Origin: a virus
Lineage: Duplodnaviria > Caudoviricetes
DNA: 31,565 nt
IMG/VR virus record: IMGVR_UViG_3300025751_000087
Span: 1-31,565 of that record
Direction: 5' to 3' (one strand)
The position numbers and the translations under genes are program-made. Under the pieces are notes generated by a model. It made no database searches. It had not been told where the DNA came from and saw nothing but the letters and a program-made list of their open reading frames with translations. Positions 8,895 through 31,565 of this stretch are shown here, piece after piece (the stretch's first letter is position 1; every line of letters begins with the position of its first letter).

Positions 8895-8952
8895 AGGAAC
8901 TCCTTAATATTAGAATTTCACTATTATTGGTAGTGAATTTGTTTATATTAGT

Positions 8953-8981
8953 ATTATATGTGTATATGTATTTCGTGTCAA
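8953..8981 (-). promoter_or_regulatory. Consensus sigma70 promoter for the replication operon
   Basis: TTGACA-17 nt-TATAAT, perfect consensus on the minus strand. Confidence 0.9.
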
Positions 8982-8982
8982 C

Positions 8983-9015
8983 AAAAAAAAAGGCCACATA
9001 AAATATATGTAGCCT
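8983..9015 (-). terminator. Intrinsic terminator
   Basis: AGGCTACATA-TATTT-TATGTGGCCT stem (one G-U) followed by 8 T. Confidence 0.8.
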
Positions 9016-9028
9016 CTAAACAAATTCA
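8983..9028 (-). ncRNA. Candidate sRNA U3 (5' end antisense to the replication mRNA leader)
   Basis: TTGCTT-18-TATAAT promoter at 9064-9035; 12-nt complement of 8934-8945 at predicted +1; own terminator. Confidence 0.45.
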
Positions 9029-9054
9029 ATAATAATTATACATGATTCCTAAAC

Positions 9055-9115
9055 TTAAAAGCAAGTTATAGGCCATACGGAGTGTGTGGTGTATAGCCTA
9101 TAATCTGATTCGATC
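9055..9115 (-). ncRNA. Candidate sRNA U2 (13-bp stem, 12-nt C-rich loop)
   Basis: TGcTATAAT extended -10 at 9130-9122; stem 9066-9103 with G-U pairing only on the minus strand; loop ACCACACACUCC. Confidence 0.4.
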
Positions 9116-9132
9116 AATTATATTATAGCATA

Positions 9133-9207
9133 TAAGGGGTTGAGGCACATAGATTCCCAACAATGCGCCCCAAAATGTGTTTCAGTCATATGTGACTATG
9201 AGATTAC
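9133..9207 (-). ncRNA. Candidate sRNA U1 (two hairpins)
   Basis: TGtTATAAT extended -10 at 9222-9214; small hairpin 9184-9197; 11-bp stem 9140-9173 with two G-U pairs on the minus strand and a 12-nt loop. Confidence 0.4.
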
Positions 9208-9222
9208 TATTTTATTATAACA

Positions 9223-9771: not shown

Positions 9772-10260
9772 TTATTTAACGTTCAAATTATGTTTTTCAA
9801 CAAGTTTGCATCCATTTATTTCAAGCCCATTTTTTAATGCGGTCTTTATTGCGGTTTTGTTAGGTGTAACGTTGGTTTTGGTTGTGATGTAATCTTCTGA
9901 TAGCTCTTTAATCTTATCTTCATCAACTTCGACAACGGTTGATTTTCTGGTTTTGAAATTAAGAAGATCGGATTTAAATTCACCGTATAGATTAATTAAG
10001 CCAATAATCGAACGTGATAGTAATTCTATTTTTGTTTTATTGCGTTTTTTGAGTGTTTGTAACCGTTTAATTTCTTCATCAATTTGGCCGTTTTCATATT
10101 GAAGATTGTTAATATAGTGGTAATAATTTGTGGCGGTATCGTCTCGTTTCTCAACATTAATTGCCAATAATTCCTCAGCGTGTTCAGATACAATTCCATC
10201 ATCATCAATGATATCATTGAGAATAGTTTCGTATTCAGCTTTAATTTTCCATAATGACAT
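9772..10260 (-). CDS. Siphovirus Gp157-family protein
   Basis: MSLWKI start, EEIKRLQTLKK coiled coil, PNKTAIKTALKNG.EINGCKLVE C-terminus. Confidence 0.8.
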   Translation of the reverse strand: MSLWKIKAEYETILNDIIDDDGIVSEHAEELLAINVEKRDDTATNYYHYINNLQYENGQIDEEIKRLQTLKKRNKTKIELLSRSIIGLINLYGEFKSDLLNFKTRKSTVVEVDEDKIKELSEDYITTKTNVTPNKTAIKTALKNGLEINGCKLVEKHNLNVK

Positions 10261-10261
10261 T

Positions 10262-10660
10262 TTATATTCTCCTTTCAACTTTTAAATTGCCAAAGGCAAT
10301 AACTTCTGAATCGTCATTGGCAATAACTTCTGAATTGTCATAGGCCCTAACTTCTGAATTGTTATAGGCCCTAACTCTTGAATTGTCATAGGAAGTAACT
10401 ATTGAATTGCCATAGGAAGTAACTTTTGAATCGCCATAGGCACCAACTTTTGAATTGCCAAAGGCAATAACTTCTGAATCGTCATTGGCAATAACTTCTG
10501 AATTGCCAAAGGCAATAACTTTTGAATTGCCAAAGGCAATAACTTTTGAATTGCCATACACATAAAAGATACCTGCCTCAAGAATTGCATAGCCATCTAA
10601 ATCAATCTCATAACCCGTTACTGGCTTTGTTTTGCGTATGTCGTAGTATATTTCTTGCAT
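10262..10660 (-). CDS. Octapeptide-repeat (beta-solenoid-like) protein
   Basis: 12 repeats of xA(F/Y)(G/D)NS(K/E)V; SD AAAGGAG before ATG 10660. Confidence 0.75.
   Translation of the reverse strand: MQEIYYDIRKTKPVTGYEIDLDGYAILEAGIFYVYGNSKVIAFGNSKVIAFGNSEVIANDDSEVIAFGNSKVGAYGDSKVTSYGNSIVTSYDNSRVRAYNNSEVRAYDNSEVIANDDSEVIAFGNLKVERRI
10277..10564. repeat. 24-bp coding tandem repeat, 12 copies
   Basis: Unit of the type AACTTCTGAATTGCCAAAGGCAAT, repeated with variation. Confidence 0.95.
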
Positions 10661-10880
10661 TTTTATTTCTCCTTTTATTTTTGAAAAATCCACTAAACAA
10701 AACTCTAAATGGATTTCTGTATATATAATCCATTAAATCCTCAAGTGGCTCTGGCTCTCTTGTTTGCTTTTGTTTTACAGTATCTGTTTTTATTTTTTTA
10801 GGGGCCTGAATTTTTTTATTTGTATATGCGGAGTATATTTGGCCTTGATAACAGGGTATAGATATTATTTTATTCATCAT
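10608..10880 (-). CDS. Hypothetical protein
   Basis: ATGA-coupled to the upstream SSAP gene; overlaps the next gene by 53 nt. Confidence 0.55.
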   Translation of the reverse strand: MMNKIISIPCYQGQIYSAYTNKKIQAPKKIKTDTVKQKQTREPEPLEDLMDYIYRNPFRVLFSGFFKNKRRNKNARNILRHTQNKASNGL

Positions 10881-11817: not shown

Positions 11818-11940
11818 TTAGACCTCACAACTCCAGACTGCATCCCATTCGCAACCGTCTAATTCTACTGGTTCGCAATCTGCACCCTTACACACCTGGC
11901 ACACTTCCTCGTAATATGTTGGCATTTCGAATCTATCCAT
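11818..11940 (-). CDS. 40-aa acidic Cys-rich peptide (not in ORF track)
   Basis: MDRFEMPTYYEEVCQVCKGADCEPVELDGCEWDAVWSCEV; strong SD AAAGGAG; first gene after promoter P1. Confidence 0.65.
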   Translation of the reverse strand: MDRFEMPTYYEEVCQVCKGADCEPVELDGCEWDAVWSCEV

Positions 11941-11973: not shown

Positions 11974-12002
11974 ATATTACAATGTCTTACAATGTATGTC
12001 AA
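11974..12002 (-). promoter_or_regulatory. Early promoter P1 with operator in the spacer
   Basis: TTGACA-17-TAATAT; two ACAWTGT heptads 10 bp apart. Confidence 0.85.
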
Positions 12003-12195: not shown

Positions 12196-12224
12196 ATAAT
12201 ACATTGTATGACATTGTATATCAA
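12196..12224 (-). promoter_or_regulatory. Early promoter P2 with operator in the spacer (paralogue of P1)
   Basis: TTGATA-17-TATTAT; two ACAWTGT heptads; leader shared with P1. Confidence 0.8.
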
Positions 12225-13448: not shown

Positions 13449-13843
13449 TGAGATTTTCTGATGATTGCTATAATTGCAGGGATTGTTTAGTAATCGATCA
13501 CAAATCCTACAAAAGAAAACTATCTAAGTTAGTTTGTTCCCCTTTTCGTTTCATACAAAGACTTTTTGTTTGTGATCTTGAGCAAAGAGAAATCGAACTA
13601 AGTAATCAGATTCAAGAGCTTAATAAATTCAAACATGTTAATATTGATGCGATTAATAGAAACACCTTCAACAATTTAGGAAAATCAGTGGCAAGTATGA
13701 AAAACAGAATAAATAAACTGGTGGTTCCTGATGACTACACGGAAGAGTTTCAGTTTATATTTGATTTGAAACACGATTTAAATGAATTTGAAAAACATTG
13801 GAATCAAATTAAAAAATTACCAAAAGAAGTGGGTGATAACTAA
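13448..13843 (+). CDS. Hypothetical protein (N-terminal Cys cluster, coiled coil)
   Basis: CYNCRDC; TAATG overlaps on both sides. Confidence 0.65.
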   Translation: MRFSDDCYNCRDCLVIDHKSYKRKLSKLVCSPFRFIQRLFVCDLEQREIELSNQIQELNKFKHVNIDAINRNTFNNLGKSVASMKNRINKLVVPDDYTEEFQFIFDLKHDLNEFEKHWNQIKKLPKEVGDN

Positions 13844-14280
13844 TGGCGTATAACACCGAAGAATTATATCAAATGGCTTTGAAAATTATCAAAGAACGTG
13901 AAGTTCGAACGATTGAAGGGGTTGTTGCACTTATGCCATGCGACAAAACAACTTTCTACAAGCATTTCCCGATTGATTCCAACGAACTCAACACCATTAA
14001 AAGAGAATTAAATAAAAAAAAGGTCGAGGGAAAAGAAAGATTAATACGTATGATGGGCTCAATTACACATGGTTCACCTGCTGAACGAATTTTTCTTTAC
14101 AAGTTATGGGCGGACAAAGAAGAAAAAGAGGCCATATATGATACAAGCATCAAGGCAAAGATTGAAACACCTAGACATGAAATAACGTTAAATTTAATTA
14201 AAGATGATGAACAAAATTTAATTCAAGAAAAAAAAGAAAGTGAGGAAAAAAATGGGAATAACAACACAAAAACATATTAA
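13843..14280 (+). CDS. Putative terminase small subunit
   Basis: N-terminal HTH (VVALMPCDKTTFYKHFP), helical core, upstream of TerL. Confidence 0.55.
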   Translation: MAYNTEELYQMALKIIKEREVRTIEGVVALMPCDKTTFYKHFPIDSNELNTIKRELNKKKVEGKERLIRMMGSITHGSPAERIFLYKLWADKEEKEAIYDTSIKAKIETPRHEITLNLIKDDEQNLIQEKKESEEKNGNNNTKTY

Positions 14281-18320: not shown

Positions 18321-18760
18321 TTGGTAATCTTGTAGGCTCAGTTGTTGGAACGGTTGGGGATGTTGTTAAAAAAGATCAACAAATCAAAGAAATAAAAGAA
18401 AAAGGTAAACTTGATATTCAACAAGCTAAAATTGATCTGAATGTTGCTAAACTAAAGGCACAAATTAAACAACAAGAAACACAAGCTGCCAACGATATGA
18501 CGTATGATATGCAAGTACTCAAGAATAGGCGTGAATCGTTCATTGATGAGTTTATAATCTTAGGCTTTTTTATTATTATGATTCTAACGTTTATCCCAGC
18601 CACACAGGCAACAATGGCGCAAGGATGGAAAGCATTGAATGACACTGCATGGTGGTTTGAATTTGGAATTGTGGGCATACTTGTTTCAACACTTGGTTTA
18701 AAAGATGTGTTACGTATTTTTCTTGGTGGATCAATCGATAAGCTAAAAAAAAAACAGTAA
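18308..18760 (+). CDS. Holin-like membrane protein
   Basis: Amphipathic N-terminus, coiled coil, SFIDEF followed by two TM helices, basic C-terminus; next to a lysin-like domain. Confidence 0.65.
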   Translation: MFNIIGNLVGSVVGTVGDVVKKDQQIKEIKEKGKLDIQQAKIDLNVAKLKAQIKQQETQAANDMTYDMQVLKNRRESFIDEFIILGFFIIMILTFIPATQATMAQGWKALNDTAWWFEFGIVGILVSTLGLKDVLRIFLGGSIDKLKKKQ

Positions 18761-19233
18761 ATGACCAAAACGTAACAAATTCTAAAATAGTCACGACTAA
18801 AACGGAATCTAATGTAAACCAGTCGAATTCGACCCCTTTAGAATACGATCTTATCTTTGATGTTGTTGATACCTTTAATAAAACCAAACTTGGTAACTTA
18901 TGCATCAATGACCAAAAATGGGAATGCATAAGCGGTAAATATGGAAATGGAGCATTGCCAAAGGGTATGTACAAAATTGAAGATTGCTACAAATTGGATC
19001 CGATTAAAGGTAAAACAGAGGCGTATACAGGTAGAGAATTTCCTTGGGTAGCTAGACTAACGCCACAATTTGAAACAAATCGCACAGGCTTATTAATTCA
19101 TCCCGATGGCAATAAAGAGGGAACGAGAGGTTGTATTGGGATATCTAAAAAAGAAAATGATGTTGCAGTGTATGAATTAATCACAAATTTATTAAAAAGT
19201 AAAAAAGAATTGATACTATATGTTAATAAATAG
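18742..19233 (+). CDS. L,D-transpeptidase-fold (YkuD/Tlde1/DUF5675-like) putative endolysin domain; no own ATG, probably frameshift-fused to the holin-like gene
   Basis: Frame open from 18742; SGKYGNGALPKGMY, RTGLLIHPDG, TRGCIG (His/Cys catalytic pattern). Confidence 0.7.
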   Translation, partial: AKKKTVNDQNVTNSKIVTTKTESNVNQSNSTPLEYDLIFDVVDTFNKTKLGNLCINDQKWECISGKYGNGALPKGMYKIEDCYKLDPIKGKTEAYTGREFPWVARLTPQFETNRTGLLIHPDGNKEGTRGCIGISKKENDVAVYELITNLLKSKKELILYVNK

Positions 19234-19239
19234 TATAAT
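19210..19239 (+). promoter_or_regulatory. Sigma70-type promoter with no downstream same-strand gene
   Basis: TTGATA-18-TATAAT. Confidence 0.65.
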
Positions 19240-19245
19240 TTAGAT

Positions 19246-19328
19246 GAGTAATCATATTTTGGCCTACACCCTTTGTTTTTTTGTATATCTTTTAAATTAG
19301 TAGGCCAATCCCTAACTAATCTTTTTTA
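19246..19328 (+). ncRNA. Candidate trans-acting antisense sRNA U4
   Basis: 9-bp perfect stem TTGGCCTAC/GTAGGCCAA with a 32-nt loop complementary to the leaders at 11952-11969 and 12174-12191. Confidence 0.55.
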
Positions 19329-19648
19329 TAGCGTTTTACGATGTTTTGCCCGATTTGTTTTAACCGTCTAACTGAATCGTAATTGCTTGGTATGGGAGCA
19401 TCCCATCTTTTAAATTGCATTGCTGCTGGGGTTGGTCGTCCTTGCTTGTCTTTTAATGGTTGGCTTTGTTTTAAAATTTGTGTTGCTTTGCGTAATAGAA
19501 ATTTACCACGTGTTAGCTTACGTGACGGACTAGCTTTACTAACATCCCTAACAGGACGAGCGACACTGCCACCGGTGCGGTTATACTCATCCATTTTCTT
19601 ATTTGTACGCTTGTCATAGCGTTTATACTTCTCTTCCGCACTCAACAT
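19316..19648 (-). CDS. Basic phage protein (DUF6321-like)
   Basis: YNRTGGSVARPV...PLKDKQGRPT....FKRW resembles this family from memory; TGATG-coupled to the portal. Confidence 0.5.
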   Translation of the reverse strand: MLSAEEKYKRYDKRTNKKMDEYNRTGGSVARPVRDVSKASPSRKLTRGKFLLRKATQILKQSQPLKDKQGRPTPAAMQFKRWDAPIPSNYDSVRRLKQIGQNIVKRYKKD

Positions 19649-21642
19649 CACCCGATACTATTTATAAAATTAGGTACTTGTGGCATTTCAGGCATTGGTG
19701 GTGGGGGCATTGTTAGCCCTAAGCTGTCTGTTATCGTACTAATTGCCGATACTTGTTGCTCAATAGGTAATACACCAATTAATTCAATAATATCTTTTAA
19801 GCTCATATTTACATTTTTAATGTATGCGTTAAAATCTGGCTCAGGTATTGGCACTTGAGCTTGTTCGTCTTGCTCTTCTTTTATTTTATTGATGATTGCT
19901 CGGTAATTTGGATAATCCAACGTTTTCAAAATTAACTCTTTGACGTCTGGGTTATTGATATCCCCAAATATACCTTGTTGCGCTAATTGCATGGTCGTTG
20001 CAGCGATTGCCGATTGTGATTGTGGCAATGAACTTCCAGCAGTTATTTCAACTTCGTACTCACCCAGTGTTAAATCAGATTTAATGGTATCAATGGCCAT
20101 TAATTCGTTTGTCATCATGTCACGATCATATATGTTTATTTCCATTTCACCCATTTCATTAGGCTCCATTGACGCAAATTGTGTTCCACTGGCCATGCGA
20201 ATGATTCTTGGTTGATTGTAATATAATTGTATCAATACAACAGCTTTATTGCTTATATCGGTTAAGAAGTTTTTGAAATTACGTTGCATCTCACGAATAG
20301 ATGACATTGGCGATTCAATCAAATCACGTACCATTTGACCACTGTTAACACCGGTTGGGCGTTCACCTGATAGCATAATCTCATTGATACGTGCAATCTT
20401 GTATGCATCTTGTTTCAAATCTTGTATATGCTGTCTCATAATTTGTATATCATTAGTCAACTTGTTGGTAACCAACATCGGTTGTGTCATTGGGTCACCA
20501 GGTTGGCTACCAATAATATCAAAATTGCCCTGGAAATGTCTTCGGTAGTTTTCGGGAACAATTAACATTGATTTGTATTTAACAATTAACTCTTGAAGTT
20601 TAGCATATGCATTGGTTAAACGTGCTTGTATTTGCATTAAATCCTCAACGTCACCTTGCCCCATTAGAGAATCACTTTGTGTTGGTGAGTAAGTAGCAAA
20701 TGGGAAACCAAAAGGGTAATCGATTGGCCGATCTTCCAATATTTCCTCACCACTAAAAATGATTAAACGTCCATTTGGGTATTTAAACCTTTCTTCGGTT
20801 TTCATTTCCTGATCTTGCTCTGATTCGTCATCCAAAGGAACAAGCACCGTATCATCTTTTAAGTAACATTCCCAAAGTTCGATATTATGTTCAGTTCCAG
20901 AAGGCTTTAAACTACCTTCATTTAAATACATTTCACTACCGGTAGTTACACCGTTAGCAGTTACTTTACCAGCAACAACCTTGTTTGTAGGCTCTCCCAT
21001 GTCGATAGTTGCCGATGGTGAGCTTAATTTATCAATCTTTTTTAGAATGTCAGGTTTATTTTTGTATTGGTTAATTAAATCAAAACGACTAATAACACGT
21101 TTAACAAATATATAGTTACAGTTTTCAATGTTTGTTGCAGTTGGTTCAGGGTAAAAATCTAATGGACTAACACGCTCTATCCTTATATCACCTAACCCAT
21201 TATTAATTGACTGATTCCATATAACTTTGGCAATACCTACGCCATAGATTGAACCATCACGCATAACTTTTTGTGAGATGTTCGATAATTCCGAACTTCT
21301 TTTAATGTTTTCCCAACAATCATTCAAAATATCAGCGATTGATTCTAATTGCTTTAGATTATCAAAAGTCTGGTGTGATAGATTAGCAGGTTTGACGTTC
21401 GTCGTAATCATTGCATCCAAAGCGGTTGTAGCCTTAGTTTCAACGATTGGCTTTATAACATTATAGTATGCGTTGCCTTGCCCAGCACTTCCAAGCGTTG
21501 TATTTCCATCTCTATCAACGCCAGTAATAGGCTCAAACGAACCATCATAATAACGCTTATATTTTTTAAGCTGCTTGGTGTTATGCCCCGATTTTGCCTG
21601 AGACAATAAATTATTCAGGTATTTAATAAAGGGGTTATCCAT
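19648..21642 (-). CDS. Portal protein (P22-like), on the opposite strand to other structural genes
   Basis: RYYDG, YNVIKPIVE, DGSIYGVGIAKV.W, RVSPLDFYPEP, long Q-rich C-terminal helix; start ATG 21642 or a nearby upstream codon. Confidence 0.88.
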   Translation of the reverse strand: MDNPFIKYLNNLLSQAKSGHNTKQLKKYKRYYDGSFEPITGVDRDGNTTLGSAGQGNAYYNVIKPIVETKATTALDAMITTNVKPANLSHQTFDNLKQLESIADILNDCWENIKRSSELSNISQKVMRDGSIYGVGIAKVIWNQSINNGLGDIRIERVSPLDFYPEPTATNIENCNYIFVKRVISRFDLINQYKNKPDILKKIDKLSSPSATIDMGEPTNKVVAGKVTANGVTTGSEMYLNEGSLKPSGTEHNIELWECYLKDDTVLVPLDDESEQDQEMKTEERFKYPNGRLIIFSGEEILEDRPIDYPFGFPFATYSPTQSDSLMGQGDVEDLMQIQARLTNAYAKLQELIVKYKSMLIVPENYRRHFQGNFDIIGSQPGDPMTQPMLVTNKLTNDIQIMRQHIQDLKQDAYKIARINEIMLSGERPTGVNSGQMVRDLIESPMSSIREMQRNFKNFLTDISNKAVVLIQLYYNQPRIIRMASGTQFASMEPNEMGEMEINIYDRDMMTNELMAIDTIKSDLTLGEYEVEITAGSSLPQSQSAIAATTMQLAQQGIFGDINNPDVKELILKTLDYPNYRAIINKIKEEQDEQAQVPIPEPDFNAYIKNVNMSLKDIIELIGVLPIEQQVSAISTITDSLGLTMPPPPMPEMPQVPNFINSIG

Positions 21643-21677
21643 GAACATATAATACAATCAGAATTTTATATGTTCAT
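21641..21677. promoter_or_regulatory. Perfect 12-bp inverted repeat overlapping the portal start
   Basis: ATGAACATATAA-13 nt-TTATATGTTCAT. Confidence 0.6.
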
Positions 21678-29579: not shown

Positions 29580-31345
29580 GCTTTGTTGTAGAATCGTATC
29601 AATCTAAAGGGCTACGGGATGATAAAGGACGAAAGTTCGTATCACCGGATTATTTTTACAATATTGAAAATATGAACTATGACAACATCATAGGATGTCA
29701 AAGAATAAAAGCCCCTAGTGTTGAATATAACGTAGGAAGCAATCAAATTGATGGTGGTTATGATTTTAGATACATTGATTCAGTAGGACAATTTCAAAGT
29801 GAAAAAATAATTGTTCAAGGCGGTTCAATCATTAAAGACTTTTTAACTAGCCCTACTACGATTTATACAGGTTTAACAGCAGGTAAAAAATGCACGTTCG
29901 GAATACTAAACGATAAATTATTTATCTCAAATGGCTTTGATTATCCATTGGTTTATGATGGTACTTATGTTAAGGAAATGGGCGCACCAACAGCCAAAGA
30001 CTTGCTTGTCGCAGGTGGATTAACAGGAGCTTACTATTATGCGATGACATATGTTATTGATGGTGTCGAAATTATACTTGGAACTAAGTCAAATACAATT
30101 ACCGTATCAAGTAAAAGCATTGAGCTTGATTTACCGGTAGGGATTGCAACATGCACAGCACGTAAAATATACCGTACAGAGGCAGGGGGTAGCACATTAA
30201 AGCTACTAACAACAATTAACGATAACACCACTACAAGTTATCAAGACAATACAGCCGATGGATCACTTGGTGCAAATATACCGAGTACGAACAGTTCATG
30301 TCCAACACCACAGTTTATAACGGTAAAAGATGAAAAAATAATAGGTGCAGTAAATGCAAATAGACCTAATTACTTGTATGTAACAGAATTTGAGGTAGAA
30401 GTTTTTTTTAATACGTCAGGCGTTTATGACGTGTCGGGGGTAGGGAACGATAATTCCCCATTAACTGGATTAATAGAAGATTATAATCAGATCGTTGTTT
30501 TTTCAGAAAACCATATATATTTAGCGGACACGTCAGGGTTAACAACAAGTGTAAAACAAACAACGTCAAACGTTGGATGCATTGACGGATTTAGTATTGC
30601 TAGAATACCAGAAAATGACATATTACAAGGTGGAATTATGTTTGTTTCTAATTTATACGATGTTCGTATTTTTAGCGGTAATATTGCCACCAACTTAGCA
30701 ACAAGTTTTGATAACTTAACAACAAATAATTTTTCTAGCGCAATAAATAAAGATAGTTTAAAAAATCAGTTAAAAGATAACCGATTAGAAGCAGCATTTT
30801 TTGATTATAAATATCATTTGATTGCTGAAACATTTATGTATGTTTACGATATACGTATTTCAGGATGGACGAAGTATTTTATTAAAACAACAAGTTACAC
30901 CCCTATTTATTGGCGGTTTTTTCAGATCGACCAAACGTTGTATATTACCCAAAAAAATGCAGGTATTGTGGAGCAAATGTACAATGCTTTGAATTATCGT
31001 GGGGAAGAATTAACAGCGTTTTTTGAAACGCCTGAAATAGCGGTGGGAACAGAACAAAAATTCTATAAAAATTTATATGTGTATTATGACAAGTCAGGAA
31101 GTAATACTTTAACAGCAACTGCAACAATAGACAGCACAAAAACAGTAACTGCCACCATCACTTATGATGGAGCGTATTATGACTTTGATTATTTCGATGA
31201 AGATTATTTTGAGACGACAGAAGACGAAGAAGATTACAAAGTGGTATACATAAATAAATACGCAAATTGGATGCGTTTTAAAATAAGCACACAAACACAA
31301 GCCATTATTAAAGGATGGAAATTGGAAGGGCGTATAATTCAATGA
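29576..31345 (+). CDS. Tail nozzle/stabilisation protein (P22 gp10/T7 gp12-like beta-propeller)
   Basis: 589 aa, beta-rich; LFISNG.D, IVVFSE..IY, VGCI, YVYD...GW motifs; TTG start overlapping the adaptor stop. Confidence 0.7.
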   Translation: MSFVVESYQSKGLRDDKGRKFVSPDYFYNIENMNYDNIIGCQRIKAPSVEYNVGSNQIDGGYDFRYIDSVGQFQSEKIIVQGGSIIKDFLTSPTTIYTGLTAGKKCTFGILNDKLFISNGFDYPLVYDGTYVKEMGAPTAKDLLVAGGLTGAYYYAMTYVIDGVEIILGTKSNTITVSSKSIELDLPVGIATCTARKIYRTEAGGSTLKLLTTINDNTTTSYQDNTADGSLGANIPSTNSSCPTPQFITVKDEKIIGAVNANRPNYLYVTEFEVEVFFNTSGVYDVSGVGNDNSPLTGLIEDYNQIVVFSENHIYLADTSGLTTSVKQTTSNVGCIDGFSIARIPENDILQGGIMFVSNLYDVRIFSGNIATNLATSFDNLTTNNFSSAINKDSLKNQLKDNRLEAAFFDYKYHLIAETFMYVYDIRISGWTKYFIKTTSYTPIYWRFFQIDQTLYITQKNAGIVEQMYNALNYRGEELTAFFETPEIAVGTEQKFYKNLYVYYDKSGSNTLTATATIDSTKTVTATITYDGAYYDFDYFDEDYFETTEDEEDYKVVYINKYANWMRFKISTQTQAIIKGWKLEGRIIQ

Positions 31346-31565
31346 ATGTGGAGTATGTAACTAATAATGATATTGCTGAAATTGTTAGCTTCGGTGAACA
31401 ATGTTTTAGAAATATGAAACTCGATACATTAGGATTAAATTATTGTAAAAAAAGCCATACTCAAAACATGAAAAGGTATATTAATACAGATACTTATGTA
31501 ACTATTAAATGCATGAAAGATCAGTCTATCATTGGTTTTTTAGCAGCTTACGCATCACCACAGAT
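31213..31565. repeat. Imperfect terminal direct repeat, right copy
   Basis: Aligns to 1-353. Confidence 0.97.
31342..31565 (+). CDS. GNAT-like protein, 5' part (allelic copy of 130-591, cut by the window end)
   Basis: MNVEYVTNNDIAEIVSFGEQ...; 4 aa differences from the left copy. Confidence 0.85.
   Translation, partial: MNVEYVTNNDIAEIVSFGEQCFRNMKLDTLGLNYCKKSHTQNMKRYINTDTYVTIKCMKDQSIIGFLAAYASPQ

Follow-up and report, generated by a model that had tools for sequence, protein, structure and literature searches.

Exchangeable promoter-hairpin cassettes in an uncultured phage lineage: a likely trans-acting antisense RNA complementary to early leaders

Between two convergent genes of an uncultured phage genome lies an element that sequence comparison identifies as a real and conserved promoter-hairpin cassette, whose predicted RNA carries a loop complementary to the 5' ends of two early leaders encoded 7 kb away. 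The sequences of this and related cassettes, their conservation, their co-variation with the leaders and the occurrence of a host homologue of their 5' module form the established part of this account. Taken jointly, these observations make it reasonably probable that the cassette encodes a trans-acting antisense small RNA, carried in an exchangeable unit, belonging to an RNA-based immunity or incompatibility system and derived from a captured host small RNA.

The stretch of DNA analysed (31,565 nt, hereafter the window) corresponds to a whole podovirus-like genome of ~31.2 kb, 96% complete and ending in a 353-nt terminal overlap. The two copies of this overlap (1-353 and 31213-31565) differ at 19 of 353 positions, which suggests a strain mix at the assembly ends. 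The gene content includes terminase, P22-like portal, capsid, SSB, Gam-like and DnaD-like genes. No close named phage was found (best terminase identity about 27%), and dozens of relatives were taken from viral and metagenome collections. The only match of the capsid protein in bacterial genomes was a contig of a Margulisiibacteriota MAG, and a homologue 44% identical to the product of window ORF 13843-14280 occurs on a chromosomal-looking contig from another genome of the same Margulisbacteria family. Based on these two matches, one Margulisbacteria family is the likely host. The homologue (L117:1412-1834) is a phage small-terminase-like gene embedded in the host contig. Among other features, a 24-nt tandem repeat (10229-10606) encodes an 8-aa repeat in ORF 10262-10693, and a pentapeptide-like repeat gene is found in the early region of the related locus L105.

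Table 1. Predicted elements of the cassette, its putative targets and the sister cassettes in the window
Feature	Position	Strand	Basis or remark
Upstream gene, Tlde1-domain-like (just below Pfam cut-off)	18757..19233	+	Domain search
Predicted sigma70-type promoter of the RNA cassette	19210..19239	+	-10-like box kept at the same place in the relatives compared, whichever cassette follows
Predicted 5' single-stranded tail	19245..19258	+	Alignments; shortened module common to U1, other phage copies and the predicted host small RNA
Hairpin: perfect 9-bp stem (19259-19267/19300-19308) around 32-nt loop (19268-19299)	19259..19308	+	Folding; pair counts, 12 variants
Loop core complementary to 5' ends of P1 and P2 early leaders	19270..19288	+	Sequence match
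Convergent gene, weak DUF6321 match, directly downstream of portal gene	19316..19651	-	Domain search
Predicted target 1: leader (about +1 to SD) behind promoter P1	11952..11969	-	Sequence match
Predicted target 2: leader behind promoter P2	12174..12191	-	Sequence match
Cassette U1: -10 box, host-RNA-related 5' module and hairpin; no target found	9135..9219	-	Sequence
Cassette U2: -10 box and hairpin; no target found	9066..9127	-	Sequence
Cassette U3: promoter, 12-nt 5' seed (9028-9017), terminator hairpin with U-run	8983..9064	-	Sequence, co-variation
Promoter P3 and rep leader; 8945-8934 complementary to U3 seed	8895..8981	-	Sequence, co-variation

The original prediction described a promoter (TTGATA-18-TATAAT) pointing into an 82-bp gap between convergent genes and followed by a perfect 9-bp stem with a 32-nt loop, unlike a normal terminator. 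All three elements were recovered as described (Table 1). The predicted promoter agrees with the consensus at 11 of 12 positions (-35 at 19210-19215, 18-nt spacer, -10 at 19234-19239), its -35 box and spacer sitting within the last codons of the Tlde1-like gene, and the gap runs from 19234 to 19315. Folding confirmed the hairpin, with z = -3.6 for the 58-nt core and z = -1.5 for an 86-nt RNA. On neither strand was it listed as an intrinsic terminator, the 3-8-nt loop and the U-run directly after the stem both being absent; with no U-run after the stem, nothing marks a 3' end of the RNA. Contigs from two metatranscriptome runs, in which 0.06-0.07 of the words were present, leave 19195-19464 uncovered and are uninformative on transcription. 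The portal and DUF6321 genes (19316-21657) are inverted relative to the neighbouring structural genes; their transcript would cross the hairpin as its perfect complement and could possibly act as a late sponge.

The motif CCTTTG-Tn-GTATAT occurs exactly three times in the window, once in the loop with seven T residues and once with six in each of the two leaders, as originally reported. The complement to both leaders spans 18 nt, with one extra U in the loop. On the minus strand, P1 (-35 at 12002-11997, -10 at 11979-11974) precedes a 40-aa Cys-rich ORF (11940-11818) followed by recombination and SSB genes, and P2 (-35 at 12224-12219, -10 at 12201-12196) precedes an Arc/RHH-like ORF (12164-12006). 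Among 53 start regions, the P1 and P2 leaders ranked first and second by Watson-Crick local score and second and third by duplex energy, and the loop is the best antisense match to both leaders anywhere in the window. The original prediction had called for a shuffle test at this base composition: shuffled loops equalled the best score in 58 of 2000 cases over start regions and in 37 of 500 over the whole genome, and the second-best duplex energy was reached by 53 of 1000 shuffles, so that the single-genome match is, taken alone, borderline. In these start-region tests the P1 gene start was taken 4 nt low (the true ATG lies at 11940), the leader being covered except for one base in one test. 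The P1 and P2 leaders are copies of one unit, and their two matches are not independent. The spacers of both promoters (11974-12002 and 12196-12224) contain repeated 7-nt boxes, which could be operators for the Arc/RHH protein.

Comparison with relatives provided 12 distinct variants of the hairpin. C09, C19 and C30 were dropped as coding from 53 automatically called cassettes, and L042 was dropped as unrelated. By mean pairwise identity among the variants, the stem arms (0.93/0.90) and the loop core (0.90/0.87) are conserved, in contrast to the loop flanks (0.32 and 0.60) and the two tails (0.62 each). Loop length ranged from 29 to 43 nt. Three of the 10 stem pairs were altered on both sides, these compensatory changes coming from one or two sequences, with a covariation score reached by 21 of 500 shuffles; the number of paired cells in the stem alignment of the 12 variants was not above that of shuffles. 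A covariance model of the family yielded further weak matches (E 0.13-4.5) at a third site, which motif searches confirmed as family members.

In the relatives, the slot between the Tlde1-like and DUF6321 genes keeps its promoter and exchanges its contents, which consist of the same hairpin, other promoter-hairpin units and sometimes cargo genes. Cargo genes in cassette slots are found at L011:8584-9045, L058:3330-4230, L057, L102 and L013, and encode MORN repeats (Pfam), a leucine-rich-repeat-looking ORF and others. In another reading, no regulatory RNA is released at all, and the hairpin either ends the minus-strand portal transcript on its 3' side or forms the 5' leader for a slot of cargo genes. 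The element does lie between convergent genes, its minus strand folds too (-17.8 kcal/mol, z -3.5), and in L011, L086 and L102 a plus-strand cargo gene with an SD comes after the hairpin, with MORN repeats in L011. Such a reading is nevertheless very unlikely, since both one-sided stem changes give G-U pairs compatible with the plus strand only, a 29-43-nt loop with a conserved core does not resemble a terminator, and the family also occurs at other sites, where it tracks the leaders.

Early leaders behind P1 and P2 fall into three classes according to the hexamer that ends in the first GG of the SD (CAAAGG, CTATGG or TTAAGG). For the eight genomes in which both parts are available, the longest exact complement including this GG was searched for in all known cassette DNA, a post hoc test set up once the pattern was visible. 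Six of the eight genomes exhibited a 9-15-nt exact complement to their own leader class, as against at most 5 nt to the other two classes. These complements measured 12, 15 and 11 nt (CAAAGG), 9 and 9 nt (CTATGG) and 9 nt (TTAAGG), each length being reached by 0-12 of 1000 shuffles. One of the remaining genomes (g31391) has an interrupted match only (609/1000 shuffles), which is nonetheless the best one within its loci; for the partial contig g17864 no exact match to its own leader was obtained (270/1000 shuffles). The site-3 loop of the two CTATGG genomes reads CCATAG in place of CCTTTG, and one of them carries two CTATGG leaders; in the TTAAGG genome L105 the complement is located in the 5' tail of a site-1 unit. 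L009, whose leader is class-C, has a terminase gene identical to that of L106, which carries a class-C cassette. The three classes are clustered by kinship, so that they represent about two independent changes. The terminase tree has little resolution, with 2 of its 13 branches starred. The loop/leader covariation that the original prediction had proposed as a check is supported by this post hoc count of six genomes in eight; energy-based tracking of the own genome was not significant (240/720 permutations).

Predicted net pairing of the 12 variants with P1/P2 leaders lies mostly between -10 and -23 kcal/mol, is weaker for L102 and L056 (-5 to -13 kcal/mol), and amounts to 0 to -10 kcal/mol with rep leaders. 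The L102 loop pairs weakly with every leader tested, and that of L056 is, narrowly (13 vs 12), the best match to its own P1 leader within 54.7 kb of overlapping loci. On a fine scale the RNAs do not track their own leaders: T-run lengths in the loops show no correspondence with A-run lengths in the leaders, the window loop pairs better with the P2 leaders of L011 and L030 than with its own leaders, and for the L011 RNA the window leaders are better partners than its own. Overall, the relatives support the claim of a plus-strand hairpin RNA whose loop appears to be kept complementary to early leaders. The original prediction also named the RHH regulator as a target; it would be a local target in the window and not a conserved one, since relatives retain the leader but have other genes in first position behind P2. 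The RNA might instead act on DNA, by pairing with the displaced non-template strand of open P1/P2 promoter complexes. In favour of this, the complement covers about -2 to +16 with template-strand sequence, yet conservation is centred on the SD-adjacent hexamer rather than on the -10 side and no RNA-guided protein was recognised among the 51 ORFs scanned, which makes this possibility extremely remote.

A second slot, located before the rep gene, holds U1-U3 in the window and up to six promoter-hairpin units in relatives. In all 9 of the 9 loci compared (the window, L058, L071, L072, L073, L080-L082 and L085), the rep leader has a 5' end to which the 12-nt U3 seed is matched. These seeds are of six types, each matching its own rep leader best (1/720 permutations), arguably the cleanest signal in the genome. 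L082 and L085 contain a second U3 copy with a 12/12 match to the L058 and window leaders, for which the sequenced portion of the genome that carries it has no partner. This co-variation and the extra copies show, at the level of sequence, that selection in this lineage maintains short complements to early 5' ends from which they are unlinked, including some whose partner is absent from the sequenced portion of the same genome. In the rep leader, a leader hairpin is predicted to compete with an SD-occluding fold; when the seed-bound stretch is held unpaired, predicted SD accessibility falls in 7 of 9 leaders (from 0.30 to 0.09 in the window) and is unchanged in 2. The claim that all three early promoters have a matching antisense RNA thus gains support from the relatives, very strongly so for U3 and the rep leader. 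About 15 further types of promoter-hairpin units (e.g., L073:5460-5825, L080:4400-4710, L082:440-960, L013:6335-6460 and L017:4215-4290) had no target in phage loci or in partial host searches.

The stem likeness to U2 and the AGTAATC shared with U1 are both present, as initially noted. A modular scaffold-plus-guide system had also been proposed, a view that can be retained in part. Cassettes are indeed exchanged between slots and share a 5' module, but the stem is no fixed scaffold sequence: a different one is found in site-3 RNAs, and in class-C and U3 RNAs it is a 5' tail that would do the pairing. The shared module looks host-derived and is shortened in the window copy, which has lost 7-9 nt of it; U1 carries a more diverged form. 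A search of candidate hosts with the complement of the tail revealed the module in a conserved intergenic element (L140:1475-1545, with homologues L137, L147, L149, L154, L158 and L169), predicted to be a small RNA; besides the same 15-nt module (L140:1501-1515) it has a GC hairpin and a U-rich stretch. The element follows sepF-mazG, and G002 carries a further copy behind a JAB-domain gene. Exact copies of the module numbered seven in 6 of 6 genomes of one Margulisbacteria family and none in 115 other genomes sampled from the phylum. An invariant TTGGCAT lies 20-21 nt upstream of the host module, and sigma54 geometry would presumably place the +1 of the host RNA at the module start, where the phage -10 boxes likewise place theirs. 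Sigma54 is present in 6 of 6 host-family genomes, and a sigma54 promoter may serve the host RNA, although its -12 element is weak. In related phages, 16 distinct module copies stand behind a -10 box, as compared with 0-3 for 30 shuffled motifs; they occupy three sites, some being short-looped like the host copy and others bearing an anti-leader loop. Searches for host homologues of U2, U3 and other cassettes gave chance-level matches only.

Several other associations were considered, and most were discarded. A search of start regions in partial host genomes found no conserved host target of the module; a 10-nt complement just upstream of an SD (L293:1500-1540, in G001) had no equivalent of the same form in 5 other genomes. 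The antisense reading of some loops resembles a pilin start of the form M-I-T-K-x-K-G, but seven pilin-like starts in 5 host genomes had no match, the pattern gave 7 matches (one being the phage contig itself) vs 4 in the control, which is chance level, and T-run lengths disregard codon phase. The idea of a phage RNA antisense to the host element was dropped, the other strand showing the same module, hairpin and conserved upstream box. In a T4-like group (L181/L199/L206/L214) the module match is antisense to a coding frame and the loops match nothing, which points to chance, and other unrelated matches among the 95 were likewise dismissed. A 15-nt match to a cassette 5' tail near position 1500 of L345 (G004), beside a partial tRNA and an integrase-looking gene, may be due to chance or mark a prophage junction.

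The host homologue raises the question of whether the phage RNA mainly mimics the host small RNA or serves as a decoy that draws a host RNA-binding protein, its U-rich loop being a protein-binding site or spacer and the leader match either incidental or left over from an inverted copy of the DNA. In favour of this, a host element has an identical 5' module, related phages possess short-loop copies devoid of any anti-leader loop, the leader match is of low complexity, and the distal loop in the window shows the likeness to the P1 -10 region that is expected of an inverted DNA copy. Against this, the clade of the window (7 of the 12 variants) has lost much of the module and keeps the loop core, and the non-U positions of this core change together with the leader class. 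We regard a mimic or decoy as unlikely. A bolder proposal, and a doubtful one, is that the captured module is a handle for a host Hfq-independent RNA-silencing partner, with guides grafted into the loop and stockpiled against rivals, giving a Cas-free, re-programmable immunity array in phage-phage competition. Hfq-dependent small RNAs are marked by a host Hfq and a 3' U-tail; here, no Hfq match was found in 5 of 5 incomplete host genomes, and the stem of the window hairpin is followed by no U-tail. CRISPR-repeat mimics and viral mini-arrays are recognised by their likeness to host CRISPR repeats and by a host Cas system; here, cas1 was detected in one of 9 incomplete host genomes, and the phage module matches a non-CRISPR locus.

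Under the favoured antisense reading, the cassette would produce an RNA of about 65-70 nt whose loop pairs with the initial 16-18 nt of the early mRNAs predicted from P1 and P2. Pairing would extend from the 5' edge of the SD to the predicted +1 and block ribosome loading on the first genes. Because the target begins at the predicted +1, the free 5' end of the mRNA could thread into the open loop. U3 would have the same effect on the rep leader through a fold switch. Such cassettes would cap early genes for recombination and replication, both in the resident phage and in superinfecting relatives that share its leader class. As to their origin, a host small RNA (5' module and GC hairpin) was probably captured and its loop enlarged to carry the anti-leader sequence, the module decaying in the window copy while the loop core was retained. 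In proposing this scheme, we infer transcription, pairing, repression, the immunity role and the direction of capture.

An immunity or incompatibility function among related phages is suggested by the class-wide pairing and the spare U3 guides. The nearest rival is a purely self-regulatory antisense RNA, which would build up in the course of lytic infection to set the time at which early genes are shut off and would have no effect on other phages. A predicted sigma70-type promoter would fire on entry, the RNAs follow the leader class of their own genome, and no integrase was found among the 51 ORFs scanned, so that a carrier state needing immunity is hypothetical; most of the evidence is in fact common to both readings. 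However, the extra U3 copies, whose own genome has no partner for them in its sequenced portion, exactly match the leaders of other phages, and the window loop is a perfect 19-nt complement of the P2 leaders in L007/L092, L011 and L030. A self-regulatory role alone therefore appears improbable, although self-timing of early genes may coexist with a role in immunity.

If the antisense reading is true, RNA-only phage immunity, known from P1/P7 and P4, would extend to a marine lineage that is uncultured. Two features would be without precedent in the literature searched, namely the use of a captured host small RNA as the basis of guides and the presence of arrays holding guides against the messages of other phages. 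The natural leader classes offer cognate and non-cognate pairs, so that the idea is directly testable with reporters. For marine Margulisbacteria, the cassettes also indicate a small RNA not described before and a likely link between phage and host. No published description of the window RNA, of anti-leader guides on a host small RNA, or of small RNAs or phages of marine Margulisbacteria was found in the mostly non-subscription literature searched. The system is likely a variant of RNA-based phage immunity, with trans-acting antisense RNAs in exchangeable cassettes and, on the evidence of the module, an unexpected origin in a host RNA.

Several known RNAs offer points of comparison. The host element loosely resembles Yfr1 of cyanobacteria, a sister phylum, in its size of about 50-60 nt, its unpaired C/A-rich motif before a GC-rich 3' hairpin, and 9 of 11 motif letters. 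Yfr1 is defined by an exact 11-nt motif between two stem-loops and a guaB-trxA neighbourhood (PMC2190773, PMC6778093), a definition that the host element fails, with its inexact motif, no 5' stem-loop, a position after sepF-mazG or a JAB-domain gene, restriction to one family and no match in Rfam. In cyanobacterial actuatons, read-through from a small RNA drives the downstream gene, and NsiR1 consists of tandem small RNA units (PMC6596454). The arrangement in some relatives suggests a similar read-through into cargo genes. The phage antisense RNAs P22 sar, lambda OOP/aQ and BTP1 STnc6030 control phage genes, the last conferring superinfection exclusion through base pairing (PMC12197685). As far as that source describes them, they are antisense RNAs of their target genes, whereas the window RNA is encoded far away and would pair over 9-19 nt. 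The phage cassettes are also comparable to IS10 RNA-OUT, where a loop pairs with a free 5' end, and pSK41 RNAI, where the antisense induces an SD-occluding fold: free-5'-end loop pairing is proposed here, and an SD-occluding fold is predicted for U3. In contrast to actuatons, NsiR1, RNA-OUT and RNAI, which are chromosomal or cis-encoded, the phage units differ in sequence and are exchanged among phages.

The closest parallels are the C4 RNA of P1/P7 and the CI RNA of satellite phage P4. C4 is a phage RNA encoded in trans; its loops pair with target mRNA at ribosome-binding sites and upstream of them, with specificity set by a few matched RNA/target changes and a link to superinfection immunity (PMC5320573). 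The phage cassette likewise has a loop complementary to a target next to the ribosome-binding site, and matched RNA/target changes are seen among relatives (six of eight genomes, post hoc, and U3; the energy test being negative). It departs from C4, as far as the latter is described there, in having one stem-loop with a 5' tail instead of three stem-loops (P1-P3), a predicted promoter for each RNA instead of RNase P processing, several exchangeable cassettes, and targets at the 5' ends of the main early operons 7 kb away. The Rfam C4 covariance model had no match in the window (E up to 5) or, at the gathering score, in five related loci, and no Rfam family matched the hairpin in the window. 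CI of P4 is an RNA repressor located within the transcript it terminates, and binds nearby seqA (PMC10111431). The RNA proposed here would similarly repress early and replication genes without a protein repressor; unlike CI in that description, it is unlinked to its target, and a block of translation would be its likelier output. In view of these structural and Rfam results, the cassette RNA is not a member of the C4 or CI families, although it likely works as they do.
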